Counted from the first letter of the stretch, positions 56,134 through 60,685 are shown. The stretch is 64,000 nt of DNA from Candidatus Falkowbacteria bacterium (GCA_043801965.1 JAZDLN010000012.1:11115-75114); one strand, 5' to 3'. The notes: a model not told the origin generated them from the sequence alone. Numbers and translations are program-made.

Positions 56134-56679
56134 ATGGATATTAAGTTAACAAACAGGGGATTTACTTTGATCGAATTATTGACGGTGATCATGATCATCG
56201 GTATTCTGTCCTCTTTGGCTATGTTCGCGTTTTCGACCGCCAGGGAGAAGGCCAAGGAAGCGGCCGTCCTCCACGATCTGGACGTTATCGGAAGCGCCAT
56301 GAGGACATTGGTCCACGATACCGCGCTTTGGCCCGGAGGACAGGCGGCCGAGACCGTTTGCGCGCTGGCCTGCGGATTAAACGAGCTCTGTGCCGGCGCG
56401 ACTTGCGCCATGAGCCTGGCTTCATCCTCGGCGGGAATTACGGGGACCGACGGCAGTTATCCGAATTGGGACGGTCCCTACATGAACAGGATCCCCCTTG
56501 ACCCCTGGGGGCGCGAATATTTTTTCGATACCGATTATTCCGTAGATATTAACAGAGAACCATGCGGTTGCGGCGGCGGCGGATGTTATAATGTCGCGGC
56601 GGTCGGCTCTTACGGCCCGGAGAGCGCGGGCAACGGCGCCTATGACTGCGAAGAGATCATTAGGATTTTATCCCGGTAA
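56134..56679 (+). CDS. type IV pilin / type II secretion pseudopilin-like protein
   Basis: Prepilin leader and N-methylation site NRGFTLIELLTVIMIIGIL. Also the GspG-like motif DPWGREYFFD. Confidence 0.85.
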   Translation: MDIKLTNRGFTLIELLTVIMIIGILSSLAMFAFSTAREKAKEAAVLHDLDVIGSAMRTLVHDTALWPGGQAAETVCALACGLNELCAGATCAMSLASSSAGITGTDGSYPNWDGPYMNRIPLDPWGREYFFDTDYSVDINREPCGCGGGGCYNVAAVGSYGPESAGNGAYDCEEIIRILSR

Positions 56680-56700
56680 AACATTTTAAACAAAATTTAC

Positions 56701-59700
56701 ATGTCAATTAAACAGAATACATCCAGTCTCCTCATTTGTTTTTTTAACGCCGTTACTGGAGGTGTGTTATTTTTTTTCCTTGCTATAGCGCCCGCCTCCG
56801 CCTCGACCGTTATAAACGGCGGCTATATTTCGACCACCACCGCCTGGACCCTCTCCGATTCCCCCGTAATAATAACCGGCACCGTGACCGTCGTCGCCGA
56901 TACCGTTCTGGCTATCTCGTCCGGTGCGGAAGTCCGTTTTAACCCCGGCGCCAACCTCATGATCAACGGCTCTCTTGAGGTTCGGGGCAACGCGACCAAT
57001 CCGGTCATTTTCACATCCAATACCAACAGCACCCCCGGCGCTTGGGGGCATATTTATTTACAGCCATTAAGCAATAACAATATAATCGATCACGCTCGCG
57101 TCGAATACGGCCAGAGCCTCGTGGTTTATTCTTCTAACACCCATGTAACCAATTCCCGTTTTCTTGCTAATAGCTTCGCCGCTCTCTATATCTCGGGCGG
57201 CTCCCCGAATATTACCGGCAACACCTTCGAAGACAACACTACGGCTATCAGTATCAATTCCGGTTCCCCGGTAATCACGAATAATATCATCAATGGCGGC
57301 CAGACGGGCATCTCTATTACCGGTAATCAGAATCCGGTCATCGCCGATAACACCCTAAACACCGCTGATTGGCCCATCCGGATCGACCCCCAGTCCGGCC
57401 GTCTCGATTTAAACAATAATACCATTACCGGACCCAAGCGGGGGATTTACGTCACTTCCGGCTATATCAATGCCGATACCGAGTTTTCAGCCGTAGGTTA
57501 TCCCTATATCATCTCCAATATTCCCCCGATAAATACCGGACCCTATGCCAGGGGTATTTTTATCGCCAATGGCGCCACCCTGACCATAGATCCCGGGGTT
57601 ATCCTCAAATTCGAGCCCGGTTCTTCCCTGACGGTCGGACGCGAATATTCCGGCGGAGTAGACGATTCTCCCGGCACCCTTGTCGCGGCCGGCACCGAAC
57701 AAAACAAGATAATCTTTACCTCGATCCACGACGACCTTTACGGCGGGGACGCGAACGGCGACGGAGGAGCCACGGCGCCGGTCGTTCCCGGCCAAACCGA
57801 CAATGACCATCTTTACTTTTCCGCCTTAAGCCGGGACAGTATCCTTGATCACGCCGTCATAAGATACCGTAACCGCCTCTACGCTTTTACCGATTCCCTC
57901 CTCGTAAAAAACACCCTTTTTGAAAATAACAGCGCCGGCGCCACGGTCATAAATTCAAGTCCCGACATGATCGGCAATATATTCAAGGATAACAATTACG
58001 GCCTGACCGTTACCCAGGGAAATCCCGCGATATTCTTCAACGATTTTCTGGATAACGCCATCAGAAATATCTATATCGACCCCTCGGCCCATCCGGTTCT
58101 GTCTTCGCCCGATATTTACCAATATACTTATAACGACAGCACGCATCGAAGTAAACTCGGCAATCACTGGGATGATTATGCCGGAACGGACGCGGACAAC
58201 AACGGGATCGGCGACACGGCTTATGTTATTCCGAATGGGGCCGATGAGTTTCCGCTGATCGGGCAGATAGCTGGTTATACGGAGATTTCAACTTCAACCC
58301 GGAATCCGGTGATCATCGTGCCGGGCGGGATGGGGAGTTGGAATATTTTAGGAGGCTGGAAACTGGATCCGATTTTTCATACTTATGATAATCTCTGGGA
58401 GGCTTTAAAATTAGCAGGTTATGCGGAAAATGAAACTTTATTTGATTTTCCTTATCAGTGGCGTTTGTCTAATAATTATACGGCCGATTTATTGAAAGAA
58501 AAAATTCAGGAAGTAAAAAATATCTGCCAATGCGATAAAGTCGATATCGTGGCGCACAGCATGGGCGGGTTAGTGGCGCGCGCTTATATAGAGGGTAACG
58601 ATTATCAAAACGATATTGATAAGTTGGTATTTTTAGCGACCCCGCACCAGGGAGCCTCTGAGGCATATTTAGCCTGGGAGGGCGGCGAAATGGGCCCAGA
58701 AATATGGGATAAAGTTATACAAAGAATTTTCACGTTAGAAGCCGAGGGGAATGGATACGGCAGCGCTTTCCAATATATCAGGGGTCTGCCCATGCAATCG
58801 GCGCAGGAACTTTTACCGGTTTACGATTATTTGCGGGATAAAGACACTATGGAATTGCGACCATACCCAAATAATTATCCAGTAAACACTTTTCTGGAGC
58901 TATTAAACTATCCGGCTCTTTTAGAAAAGCTGAACAGCGTCAATTTCATAAACGTTATAACAAATTCCGGCGCAAACAGCACGATCAATAATTTTCGGGT
59001 AGTAGAAAAAGAATCGGTTTGGGGAGAATGGGAGCATGGTTACCCGGAACATTATAACCTGCCATTTACCGATCACGGTATTGAATATGGACCAGGGGAT
59101 GAGACTGTGCCGGAAAAAAGCAATAAGAATTTTTTAGGAAGAGAGGATGTTATTATAGAAAACAGCAAACATCTCAATATCGTAACCGATGCCCAAAAGC
59201 AAGTCATAAAATTTTTAACTGGCATAATACCTGATCAAGAAATATCTATAACCCCGGAAGAAGAAAGGGTATTACTGATAGCCATCCACTCCCCGGCTGA
59301 TTTCGTCGTTATCTCGCCCTCAGGCAAAAGATTGGGCAAGGACTTTTCGAATAATACCGCCGTAAACGAAATAGACTTCGCTTTTTACTCAGGCTTCGAC
59401 GAACCGGAATTCGCGGTTATAATTAATCCCGAAGAAGGCGAATACCGGGTCGAACTCGAAGGCATCGGCGACGGAGAATACAAGCTTGATCTAAGCTATA
59501 TCGACGAAGAAAAAGAAATCATCAAAGAATTTATCGGCGGTATCACCCCGGAAGAAGAACACGGTTTTGATTTCAGCTATAGCCAGGAAGACGAAAACCC
59601 GATAAGCGAATTAGAACCGGACGACAATACGCCACCTGTCATAATTATTAATAGCCCGACAGAAAACGAACAGTATTTTCACAATGAAAAATTAATCGTT

Positions 59701-60273: not shown

Positions 60274-60277
60274 ATCT

Positions 60278-60685
60278 ATGAGCGAAAAAACGAAAAAAAC
60301 ATTAACAATAATTGGTATTTATTTCGGCTCTATTTTGTTGGCCTATTTTTTATCGCCTTTGAGCGGGCGGTTTTATCTGTTGTTTAGAGGGGGCGGTGGC
60401 GGCGGATGCCCCTTGTTTTTTATAGCCCTATGTGATTCCGGTGCGTATTTAGAAGGATTTATATTTTCATTTTTATTTTTTGGTTCATTTTTTTCTTGGT
60501 TAATCGTAAAAGAGAAAAAGTTAAAAGTTTGGCTATGGTTTGTTTCGCCGCTTTTGCTGTTTTTGCTTTTTTTAGAGGCGTTTGAGGAGTTAATAATCGG
60601 ATTAGGCTTAGTGTTTTTCGGCTGGCTGTTAGCGCGGTTGATTTTGTTTGTGAAATCGAAAACGAAGTCGAAGACAGGTGTTTGA
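60278..60685 (+). CDS. hypothetical small membrane protein
   Basis: 135 aa with about 4 hydrophobic helices and a G6 tract. It starts 5 nt after the giant gene. Confidence 0.5.
   Translation: MSEKTKKTLTIIGIYFGSILLAYFLSPLSGRFYLLFRGGGGGGCPLFFIALCDSGAYLEGFIFSFLFFGSFFSWLIVKEKKLKVWLWFVSPLLLFLLFLEAFEELIIGLGLVFFGWLLARLILFVKSKTKSKTGV

Follow-up and report, generated by a model that had tools for sequence, protein, structure and literature searches.

Three tightly spaced genes lie between pgk and eno in a Candidatus Falkowbacteria MAG, and the locus raises the question of whether a type IV pilin, a very large surface hydrolase and a small membrane protein form one functional module, as a preliminary description had proposed, and what such a module might do within a glycolytic run. 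The window, that is, the whole 64-kb stretch of DNA analysed, carries three plus-strand ORFs in this interval (56134-56679, 181 aa; 56701-60273, 1190 aa; 60278-60685, 135 aa), with the spacers first described, 21 nt between the pilin and the large gene and 4 nt between the large and the small gene. The pilin start lies 25 nt from the pgk stop and eno begins 278 nt from the stop of the small gene, and the flanking genes were identified by profile as PGK (E 4e-124), enolase and iPGM. The features used below are as follows.

56134-56679, plus strand: prepilin gene, 181 aa, with class III signal peptide, Glu+5, GspG-like globular part and 8 Cys (profiles and sequence)
56701-60273, plus strand: gene for the predicted exported multidomain hydrolase, 1190 aa (ORF, domain profiles)
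56701-56805, plus strand: N-terminal hydrophobic signal, aa 1-35 (...APASA|ST; sequence reading), with a hydrophobic segment at aa 7-40 (TM prediction)
56806-58293, plus strand: double right-handed parallel beta-helix, aa 36-531 (Beta_helix E 7e-17; NosD E 6e-16)
58294-59235, plus strand: capped lipase-type alpha/beta-hydrolase, aa 532-845, helical cap at about aa 655-746 (profiles, AF2, Foldseek); start of the low-GC3 cassette
58558-58560, plus strand: codon of Ser620, predicted nucleophile in AHSMGG, invariant, between model strand 94-99 and helix 101-110
59098-59100, plus strand: codon of Asp800, predicted triad acid in GPGDETVP, invariant, after model strand 274-277
59170-59172, plus strand: codon of His824, predicted triad base, invariant, in the loop after model strand 296-300
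59269-59580, plus strand: beta-sandwich domain 1, aa 857-960 (AF2 model strands 337-440), part of the family-wide conserved core
59638-59883, plus strand: Ig-like domain 2, aa 980-1061 (AF2 model strands 460-541), with a weak NCBIfam OmpL47-type match at aa 1005-1055
59890-60264, plus strand: long three-helix hairpin tail, aa 1064-1188 (AF2 model helices 544-556, 563-598, 605-646 and 652-668)
60278-60685, plus strand: gene for a small four-TM membrane protein, 135 aa (TM prediction; four helices in AF2, pLDDT 80)
60721-60741, no strand assigned: G+C-rich hairpin within the 278-nt spacer 3' of the small gene, with a terminator-like score on the minus strand only
60906-60934, plus strand: promoter-like site TGGATA-17-TATAAT with an upstream TG, 5' of eno (consensus match only)

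No T-run follows the hairpin on the plus strand, and the promoter-like site precedes eno, on which ground eno-gpmI is read as a unit of its own; this suggests that pgk-pilin-hydrolase-small gene and eno-gpmI may be separate transcription units. The placement that had been called odd is real in this genome but idiosyncratic to it, as pgk, eno or gpmI was found near the hydrolase and small gene at none of the 87 other loci.

The 1190-aa protein has an identical NCBI entry whose sole annotation is "right-handed parallel beta-helix repeat-containing protein". Domain profiles and an AF2 model with a mean pLDDT of 93.6 showed a double right-handed beta-helix on the N-terminal side, followed by a capped alpha/beta-hydrolase, then two beta-sandwich domains and finally a helical tail; the matches are at domain level and well above what chance would give, and every domain call of the preliminary description, including the long beta-helix, the lipase-type hydrolase and the Ig-like and helical tail regions, proved correct. 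Its N-terminus is predicted to act as a Sec signal peptide or, alternatively, as a signal anchor, and among the 86 family proteins whose N-terminus is complete, 68 have such a hydrophobic segment; neither a C-terminal TM segment nor a sorting motif was found in the hydrolase. The double beta-helix of about 500 aa is probably a stalk or adhesin. Most family matches reach about aa 940-1095, and the helical tail occurs only in closer relatives, being missing from many loci that still have the small partner gene.

The lipase-type elbow AHSMGG lies at aa 618-623, and in alignments its serine motif falls on the motif that bears the catalytic Ser in Bacillus LipA and in Tle4. Ser620, Asp800 and His824 were invariant in both alignments, A1 and A2 (10 and 44 sequences, respectively, for Ser620), and occupy, in the order Ser-Asp-His, the canonical alpha/beta-hydrolase loops of the AF2 model, so that the predicted triad, whose absence had been named beforehand as grounds for rejecting the proposal, appears intact. 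The best Pfam match was LCAT (PF02450, E 2e-16, 60.6 bits against a gathering threshold of 21), followed by PGAP1 (37.4 bits, threshold 24.3) and Lipase_2 (31.5 bits, threshold 20.3), together with a Palm_thioest match and a weak PhaZ7 match, while profile searches recovered LipA-type lipases, Tle4 (4r1d) and LCAT/LPLA2. The best Foldseek matches were the secreted lipases 6wpx, 4gw3, 1ex9 and 2zyh, and also PhaZ7 (E 2e-12 to 1e-6). The hydrolase subfamily is ambiguous: of the 392 positions of the LCAT profile only 41-177, about a third, were aligned, and the best 50 Foldseek matches include no LCAT/LPLA2 structure. Polyester hydrolysis of the PhaZ7 type or activity on other ester substrates is possible.

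The third gene product is, as first described, a polytopic membrane protein, with four predicted TM helices that the AF2 model reproduces. Neither Pfam, NCBIfam nor PADLOC returned a match for it, and no PDB fold match was obtained. Its Lys-rich termini and loop 2 predict an N-in/C-in topology, in which the only exposed part would be one variable, outward, Cys- and Gly-containing loop at about aa 30-55 (some 25 aa), and its family has no invariant polar residues and no conserved polar or catalytic ones. Among the locus ORFs there are 29 homologues, for 25 of which the gene immediately upstream encodes a hydrolase, and extra copies of the small gene occur near some loci. The 4-nt spacer recurs in L092, L095 and L088, and the small gene is predicted to be translationally coupled to the hydrolase gene. 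In one Moranbacteria clade a different, non-homologous small TM protein is encoded instead, by a gene that lies upstream of the hydrolase gene and overlaps it. The partner represents a protein family without a Pfam model, for which the linkage to the hydrolase (25/29) offers an experimental handle.

Comparison across genomes showed that the conserved unit is the hydrolase with its adjacent small polytopic membrane protein, and not the pilin trio. Such a partner adjoins 57 of 88 family hydrolase genes, compared to 10 of 268 background genes (p 8e-33). The C-terminal module defines a group of 672 protein clusters (E<=1e-30), nearly all from Patescibacteria, and the two-gene cassette is widespread in these ultrasmall bacteria (CPR), in hundreds of species. 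Several hydrolase paralogues occur per MAG, the genomic position of the cassette varies among loci, and the N-termini are interchangeable, closely related C-modules bearing different ones. A Y1 transposase and REP-like palindromes are associated with the cassette at L088. At L004, the cassette lies in a defence-island setting.

The pilin itself was correctly recognised as a prepilin with an N-methylation motif: its leader, MDIKLTNRG|FTLIELL, is short and basic and ends in Gly, with cleavage before Phe and Glu at +5, and both N_methyl (PF07963, E 6e-7) and TIGR02532 (E 1e-8) scored above their cut-offs. A single N-terminal TM helix (hydrophobic segment aa 7-37, TM prediction) precedes the globular domain, which has a GspG-like C-terminal motif and a partial match to T2SSG/GspG (PF08334, E 3e-5, above the 21-bit cut-off); the partial match to TIGR01710 (55.6 bits) fell below its cut-off of 88.85, and the pilin is therefore not an equivalog of GspG. 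The synteny of all three genes, whose absence from every other genome had likewise been named as grounds for rejection, was found in three other genomes (L002, L011 and L068), where a pilin directly flanks the hydrolase and small gene. A pilin adjoins the cassette at only 4 of about 86 loci, yet more often than expected by chance (Fisher p 0.003), with 4 of the 6 pilin ORFs across all loci directly flanking a cassette in this post hoc comparison, which includes the discovery case and gives 3 of 5 pilins without the window. In L002 the cassette closes a pilB-pilC-pilin operon, and in one clade (L092-L094) the hydrolase and small gene lie inside a T4P operon, between pilM and a pilB-pilT-pilC cluster. 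The genetic link between cassette and pilus genes is recurrent but facultative, and the pilin is local context rather than a conserved partner. The earlier reading is corrected accordingly: pilin and glycolytic neighbours belong to the surroundings and not to the essence of the module.

Codon composition separates the two halves of the large gene. GC3 was 0.60-0.61 in the beta-helix, which is typical of the genome, as is that of the pilin (0.665), and was 0.424 in the hydrolase and 0.364 in the helical tail; the drop from 0.61 to 0.42 occurs at about aa 531, which is also where resemblance to the same-MAG paralogue P0005 (V1867_03870) stops; P0005 is 77% identical over aa 292-531 (57574-58293) and carries an unrelated C-terminus. 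P0005 is the one instance observed of an alternative C-terminus on this N-terminus. The segment at 58294-60685 looks like a horizontally acquired cassette fused, with the reading frame kept, to a beta-helix module already resident in the genome. The low GC3 of the C-module was observed family-wide (Wilcoxon p 5e-5), and, being systematic across genomes, may therefore be inherent in the gene and not a trace of repeated transfer.

Patescibacteria do not synthesise fatty acids or phospholipids, but their membranes are of the normal acyl-lipid type and have a high content of lysolipids, which are probably taken from other bacteria (PMC7242380). In our preferred reading, to which we assign a probability of about 0.45, the cassette would encode a surface lipase or phospholipase acting on host lipids together with an immunity-like or docking partner. 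The first gene would specify a Sec-exported serine hydrolase with the predicted triad Ser620-Asp800-His824 and a swappable N-terminal surface module, and in this genome the cassette, joined to the beta-helix, would follow an orphan GspG-like pilin gene within the transcription unit of pgk. The enzyme, either presented at the episymbiont's surface or released from it, would cleave acyl esters of host or neighbour membrane lipids, causing membrane damage and liberating lysolipids and fatty acids that could meet the need of the lipid-auxotrophic CPR cell. The small membrane protein would be a cognate partner in the producer's own membrane, most likely conferring immunity-like protection and/or docking of the enzyme, and type IV pili could supply cell contact; the contact-dependent host interaction suggested at the outset is a reasonable reading. 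Non-homologous replacement of a partner is typical of immunity proteins (PMC4832377), and the immunity-like role is favoured because a non-homologous small TM protein replaces the partner in the Moranbacteria clade. Against it speaks the predicted exposure of a mere 25 aa or so, with no invariant polar residues, which would have to neutralise an enzyme of about 130 kDa. With its predicted export, intact triad and membrane partner, the cassette is a clonable candidate for lipid acquisition or host-membrane attack by CPR. A bolder form of the preferred reading, which we hold to be unlikely, is that the cassette is a Patescibacteria-wide, Sec-dependent, contact-zone effector whose phospholipase, at the cell surface, breaches the host membrane and draws from it the lysolipids and fatty acids that the episymbiont is unable to make, with the small protein as immunity factor or even lipid-receiving partner, and that it is exchanged horizontally, set onto different adhesin stalks and in some cases integrated into type IV pilus operons; if true, it would be the first candidate for CPR lipid-acquisition machinery.

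The function of the small protein might instead be mechanical. It is conceivable, if somewhat unlikely, that its sole role is to hold the exported hydrolase at the cell surface, as a membrane tether or assembly partner with no part in self-protection, and that the enzyme is a nutrient-scavenging surface exoenzyme; the tight translational coupling through 4-nt or overlapping junctions, a hydrolase devoid of a C-terminal TM segment or sorting motif, and a partner devoid of conserved polar or catalytic residues would all suit such an arrangement. However, tail-less hydrolases keep the partner, which therefore does not co-vary with any obvious docking element, the service of homologous hydrolases by two non-homologous small-protein families would be unusual for a structural subunit, and the N-terminal hydrophobic segment could anchor the enzyme by itself. 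The pilin invites another explanation, namely that the hydrolase is a substrate or tip passenger of a T2SS-like or type IV pilus apparatus and the GspG-like pilin its functional partner. P. aeruginosa LipA, one of the Foldseek matches, belongs to the family I lipases, which are classical T2SS substrates, and the GspG-like character of the pilin, the two operon contexts (pilM…pilB-pilT-pilC in L092-L094, pilB-pilC-pilin in L002), the pilins flanking the cassette in L011 and L068 and the enrichment at p 0.003 all point the same way. We nevertheless regard this as very unlikely, given that at about 95% of loci the cassette has no pilus gene beside it, that the flanking pilins of different loci share little beyond the generic N-terminal helix, that pilB, pilC, pilD and pilM were all absent from the 64-kb window, and that the PilT encoded at L092 speaks for a pilus that retracts and not for a secretion piston.

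The substrate, too, may be of another kind. The enzyme might remodel the cell's own envelope (its lipids, lipoproteins or glycolipids, including PGAP1-like deacylation), or it might degrade extracellular polyester or acylated polysaccharide, as a depolymerase like PhaZ7 or a carbohydrate esterase guided by the beta-helix, with the small protein presenting substrate or taking up product. The PGAP1 and Palm_thioest matches, the weak PhaZ7 match, the beta-helix/NosD modules, typical of polysaccharide-binding proteins, and the very wide distribution of the family in CPR would accord with such a housekeeping or other role. The accessory look of the genes, with multiple paralogues per genome, variable position, low GC3 and freely swapped N-terminal modules, along with the transposase and palindromes at L088 and the defence island at L004, argues against this, and we judge it quite unlikely.

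Among known systems, the best solved-protein sequence match covering all four catalytic-core motifs was Tle4 (TplE), the phospholipase of the Pseudomonas aeruginosa T6SS effector-immunity pair Tle4/Tli4 (4R1D), with which the hydrolase has in common the PGIxG oxyanion loop, Y-x-W-x-x-SN, the HSMGGL nucleophile elbow and the GDxTVP acid loop, although the profile match (A2 vs 4r1d_A, E 5e-9) is remote and local only. The 4R1D structure is the complex of Tle4, an antibacterial membrane-targeting lipase, with Tli4, the product of its adjacent cognate protective gene (PMC4832377). Tle4 is delivered by the T6SS, whereas the hydrolase here has an N-terminal Sec-type signal, and no VgrG, Hcp or PAAR was found in the 64-kb window or among the Pfam-annotated genes of the other loci scanned (80 loci, L008-L087, lay outside that scan). 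Tle4 also lacks the beta-helix N-terminus, beta-sandwich domains and helical tail, and Tli4 is soluble and periplasmic, whereas the partner here is an unrelated four-TM integral membrane protein; known lipase immunity proteins (Tli) are in general soluble or periplasmic and not four-TM proteins.

Polymorphic toxins (CdiA-CT/CdiI, Rhs) resemble the locus in having a beta-helical N-terminal part, a C-terminal enzyme module and a small cognate gene next to it, as well as in the compositional break at the junction, the same-genome paralogue with another C-terminus (one case) and the extra small-gene copies nearby. They differ in that, in the hydrolase family, it is the N-terminus that varies, the C-module being conserved across hundreds of species, and a Pfam scan of the 1190-aa protein and its neighbours detected no T5SS, T6SS or T7SS delivery domain and no pre-toxin processing domain.

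The best structural matches are secreted bacterial "true" lipases (Bacillus LipA/BlEst2, family I.1/I.2 enzymes of Pseudomonas, Burkholderia and Proteus, the Archaeoglobus fulgidus lipase and PhaZ7), which, like the hydrolase here, are capped minimal alpha/beta-hydrolases, at an overall identity of 10-16%. The AHSMGG elbow is identical in Bacillus LipA, and the A. fulgidus lipase likewise has a C-terminal beta domain, but these enzymes lack the large beta-helix N-terminus and the Ig/helical C-terminus. In family I.1/I.2 a gene for a membrane-anchored helper (lif) lies downstream of the lipase gene, as the small four-TM gene does here; Lif, however, is a single-TM protein with a periplasmic helical foldase domain of about 300 aa, in contrast to a 135-aa protein with four TM helices and no soluble domain. 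LCAT and LPLA2 differ from the hydrolase in cap and insertions, and have in common with it the PYxWR motif and the nucleophile region (profile matches to 4xx1 and 4x90 at E 6e-6); they are phospholipase A/acyltransferases that produce lysolipids.

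The large gene between pgk and eno encodes a capped, triad-intact lipase-type hydrolase with a predicted export signal that is tightly linked to a small polytopic membrane protein. This hydrolase/small-protein pair is widespread in CPR (Patescibacteria); the hydrolase N-termini are exchangeable, and the pair is at times embedded in pilus loci. An ORF read-out of the window returned three co-directional genes at exactly the coordinates and spacers (21 nt and 4 nt) of the preliminary description, and domain matches confirmed their place, with phosphoglycerate kinase on one side and enolase plus iPGM on the other:

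54915-56108, phosphoglycerate kinase gene, 5' of the trio
56134-56679 (+), prepilin ORF, 181 aa, 21-nt spacer to the next ORF
56701-60273 (+), beta-helix/hydrolase ORF, 1190 aa, 4-nt spacer to the next ORF
60278-60685 (+), small membrane protein ORF, 135 aa
60964-63826, enolase and iPGM genes, 3' of the trio

The first product is a prepilin, as had been proposed, with the leader MDIKLTNRG/FTLIELL, Glu at +5, PF07963 and TIGR02532 matches above cut-offs, and a globular part that is GspG-like by profile matches. The 278-nt gap ahead of eno holds a hairpin and a promoter-like site (consensus matches only), which suggests that pgk-pilin-hydrolase-small and eno-gpmI may be transcribed as two separate units. 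Flanking repeats, direct or inverted, of the kind that would mark an insertion were not found in the pgk-eno interval, no tRNA or Rfam feature was found in the window, and a domain search of the 64 kb detected no pilB, pilC, pilD or pilM.

The remaining window genes are housekeeping ones (SecA, a SecD-PPIase fusion, SecF, MreBCD, PBP2, DnaK/J, GrpE, HrcA, ProRS, RRF, MurJ and acetyl-CoA synthetase), and several merit separate mention. A staphylococcal-nuclease domain (E 5e-10) and a Lamin Tail Domain (E 2e-15) occur together in a 1303-aa protein (1116-5027, +) that is probably exported to the cell surface to degrade or bind DNA, fitting CPR nucleotide scavenging. Unusual fusions occur in SecD (18520-20598, +), whose periplasmic part is interrupted by two PPIC-type rotamase domains, and in GrpE (32897-33538, +), with an N-terminal DUF1653 domain. 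Genes for an ABC ATPase, an ABC-2 permease, a GldG-like ABC_transp_aux/DUF7088 protein and a DUF4340 protein follow one another at 43761-48578 (+), an array reminiscent of gliding-motility-type ABC exporters, here in a CPR genome. Directly 3' of secA, a 242-aa ORF (15384-16112, +) gave a weak, sub-threshold match to IS200-like Y1 transposases (E 3e-4).

For the large protein, NCBI has an identical entry from a Candidatus Falkowbacteria MAG, labelled only as a beta-helix repeat protein. Its proposed combination of beta-helix and lipase-type hydrolase was borne out by matches to Beta_helix and NosD (two blocks each) and to LCAT, PGAP1 and Lipase_2 around AHSMGG, the last three all above the Pfam gathering score. 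An AlphaFold2 model of aa 521-1190, built from a 44-sequence alignment (mean pLDDT 93.6), contained the following regions, including the expected Ig-like and helical tail parts:

aa ~536-840, alpha/beta-hydrolase, whose sixth strand is followed by a helical cap insertion of ~90 residues
aa 857-960, beta-sandwich
aa 980-1061, Ig-like domain
aa 1064-1188, long three-helix hairpin

The Ser-Asp-His triad, on which the hydrolase proposal hinged, was recovered in canonical order in the model, and its members, Ser620, Asp800 and His824, are invariant in both the 10-sequence and the 44-sequence alignments; Ser620 is predicted to sit on the nucleophile elbow, and Asp800 and His824 on loops after the last two core strands. 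The nearest folds of the hydrolase domain in Foldseek were secreted bacterial lipases, led by Bacillus licheniformis BlEst2 (E 2e-12), with Proteus and P. aeruginosa family I.1 lipases, the A. fulgidus lipase (which has a C-terminal beta domain), PhaZ7 and B. subtilis LipA as other neighbours. A profile search of PDB sequences returned LipA-type lipases (E 8e-10), then 4r1d_A (E 5e-9), in an alignment taking in the PGIxG loop, the Y-x-W-x-x-SN motif, HSMGGL and GDxTVP, and next LCAT and LPLA2 (E 6e-6); 4R1D shows Tle4 in complex with Tli4, from the P. aeruginosa H2-T6SS (PMC4832377). Residues 1-35 form a predicted hydrophobic export signal ending in ASA/ST, and no C-terminal TM segment was predicted in the protein. 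A Lif-type foldase partner, sortase/LPXTG anchoring and T6SS delivery were all ruled out on architecture.

The third gene encodes a polytopic membrane protein, as described, with four predicted TM helices, and its association with the hydrolase is general: in 57 of 88 family genes, an ORF of 60-170 aa with two or more TM helices lies on the same strand within 80 nt (downstream in 40, upstream in 17), compared to 10/268 among other long genes of the same loci (Fisher p 8e-33), and 14 of the unpaired genes lie at a contig end. When the first six small proteins were compared in pairs by BLAST, no significant similarity was found; the view that they are unrelated was overturned by an iterated HMM applied to more loci, which revealed a true family, with 29 homologues of the window's protein among 1277 ORFs, 25 of which come immediately after a hydrolase gene, the remaining four lying 2-4 genes off. 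Members share four helices and a variable loop after helix 1, often with two Cys, and since the termini and the second loop are Lys-rich, an N-in/C-in topology is predicted. In the closest relatives of the window's cassette, conservation extends even to the 4-nt spacer. A Moranbacteria-centred clade instead carries a different TM protein of ~95 aa, upstream and overlapping the hydrolase start, with no detectable homology between the downstream and upstream types (hhalign probability 0.6%). The small protein gave nothing significant in Pfam, NCBIfam or PADLOC, nor did its AlphaFold2 model against the PDB, and the family is without a Pfam model; a possible VanZ/Lipocone relationship suggested by PMC12419801 found no support from hmmscan.

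Searched exhaustively, aa 521-1190 had 7001 matches, counted as cluster representatives at 50% identity, 672 of them with E<=1e-30, usually spanning aa ~532-1095 behind N-terminal extensions of 0 to ~860 aa. At least 474 loci were found in GTDB species genomes, of which the best 80, nearly all from Patescibacteria MAGs, were analysed with ORFs called anew; several MAGs hold two or three hydrolase copies. The tiny family of ~10 proteins returned by the first all-database search was thus a word-index artefact, the exhaustive search and genome scan giving hundreds to thousands. Some loci (L014, L018, L030, L034, L041, L060, L070, L083 and others) come from TPA-assembled bins labelled Gammaproteobacteria, Bdellovibrionales or Saccharibacteria, and their cassettes are most similar to Parcubacteria-type ones; these record labels may be unreliable, and spread outside Patescibacteria is therefore not taken at face value. 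A distant 1417-aa member (L004, the P0034 locus, 967-19711) combines a beta-helix with LCAT and has a 104-aa TM partner; its neighbours (a Type ISP restriction enzyme, TIR_2, a PemK toxin, HNH, BsuBI/PstI RM and SAVED) place it in an apparent defence island. PADLOC gave no match for the window proteins.

The glycolytic placement, noted earlier as odd, is seen at the window only: pgk, eno and gpmI occur within ±8 kb in none of 87 other loci, so the trio's place in this genome is idiosyncratic. Pilin genes are rare, at 6 among 1129 non-cassette ORFs of the loci, and 4 of these 6 directly flank a cassette, in the window and in L002, L011 and L068 (one-sided Fisher p 0.003, in a post hoc test that includes the discovery case). 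Three MAGs, those with the small-protein homologues nearest to the window's, share the order pilM – hydrolase – small protein – two single-TM proteins (the first with a sub-threshold PilN match) – pilB – response regulator – pilT – pilC. The pair follows pilB-pilC-pilin-pilin in L002, and pilM and pilB lie 9-13 genes from the cassette in L047. Given this flanking and these cassettes within or near pilus loci, the link to type IV pili is real but facultative, in ~5% of loci; the idea that the three genes travel together therefore holds for a pilin beside the cassette in three other loci and not as a rule. The flanking pilins have little in common beyond a generic N-terminal helix.

Base composition points to a mosaic gene. 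GC3 of window genes is 0.575±0.069; the pilin (0.665) and the beta-helix half of the large gene (0.595-0.613) are followed by lower values in the hydrolase (0.424), beta domains (0.463), helical tail (0.364) and small gene (0.419). The break at aa ~531 coincides with the start of the family-wide conserved module and with the end of 77% identity to P0005, a protein from the same MAG by its locus tag (V1867_03870, with V1867_01940 for the small protein). P0005, on another contig, continues past the 77%-identical beta-helix block with a C-terminus of ~600 aa that is unrelated and matches nothing in Pfam; it also contains the motif ...YWYFYAFNDWEAWGGINNHEGDWETVM. A search for other C-termini with the beta-helix block (aa 292-531; 57574-58293) returned 3 short proteins and missed the parent and P0002-P0005, which contain the query, so negatives of this word-indexed protein search on low-complexity repeat regions carry no information. 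Other N-termini on the nearest C-modules include a CarboxypepD_reg-like domain (P0121) and a single beta-helix (L092). Across 49 loci, GC3 of the C-module lay below its own N-terminal part in 80% (Wilcoxon p 5e-5) and below local background (median z -1.2), which would fit an accessory, exchangeable cassette and may also be inherent to the gene itself. In one locus, L088, a 27-nt perfect palindrome, CCACTTGGAAGCTAAGCTTCCAAGTGG (327-372, 3967-3993, 4465-4491, 4653-4679), brackets the cassette and an adjacent Y1_Tnp (IS200-like) gene, a REP/RAYT-like arrangement that may mobilise it. An 86-aa ORF after the small gene of L088 has a near-threshold FIMAH-domain match (E 1e-4), which hints at a FIMAH-like helical tail in the window's protein.

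The lipase, Tle4 and LCAT relationships, together with the lipid auxotrophy and lysolipid enrichment of CPR (PMC7242380, PMC11665869), lead us to infer a membrane lipid of a host or neighbour as substrate; a secreted phospholipase of Vampirococcus has been proposed to serve this same end (PMC8080830). There is also a substantial probability that the enzyme is a housekeeping or polyester esterase, and a likewise substantial one that it is cargo of the pilus machinery.

The small protein would act as an immunity-like or a docking partner. We favour the immunity-like role because the small proteins that accompany homologous hydrolases can be non-homologous, the exposed loop varies, some loci have extra small-gene copies and the cassette structure is similar to that of toxin/immunity modules. 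Counting against it, known lipase immunity proteins are soluble and the 25-residue loop offers a small interaction surface; that the protein is purely an anchor has considerable probability too.

The enzyme class is ordinary, and the catalytic domain appears to belong, as a divergent member, to the LCAT/PGAP1/Lipase_2 section of the alpha/beta-hydrolase clan. The searchable literature yielded no account of the two-gene cassette in Patescibacteria, and its conserved pairing, CPR-wide distribution and bearing on how CPR obtain their lipids make it a worthwhile subject for tests. Compared with Tle4/T6SS, LipA-Lif and CdiA/Rhs, the window protein lacks some defining features of each, and thus falls outside all three; by analogy, the cassette's nearest functional counterpart is a lipase effector encoded with its own protective gene, the immunity role being putative.
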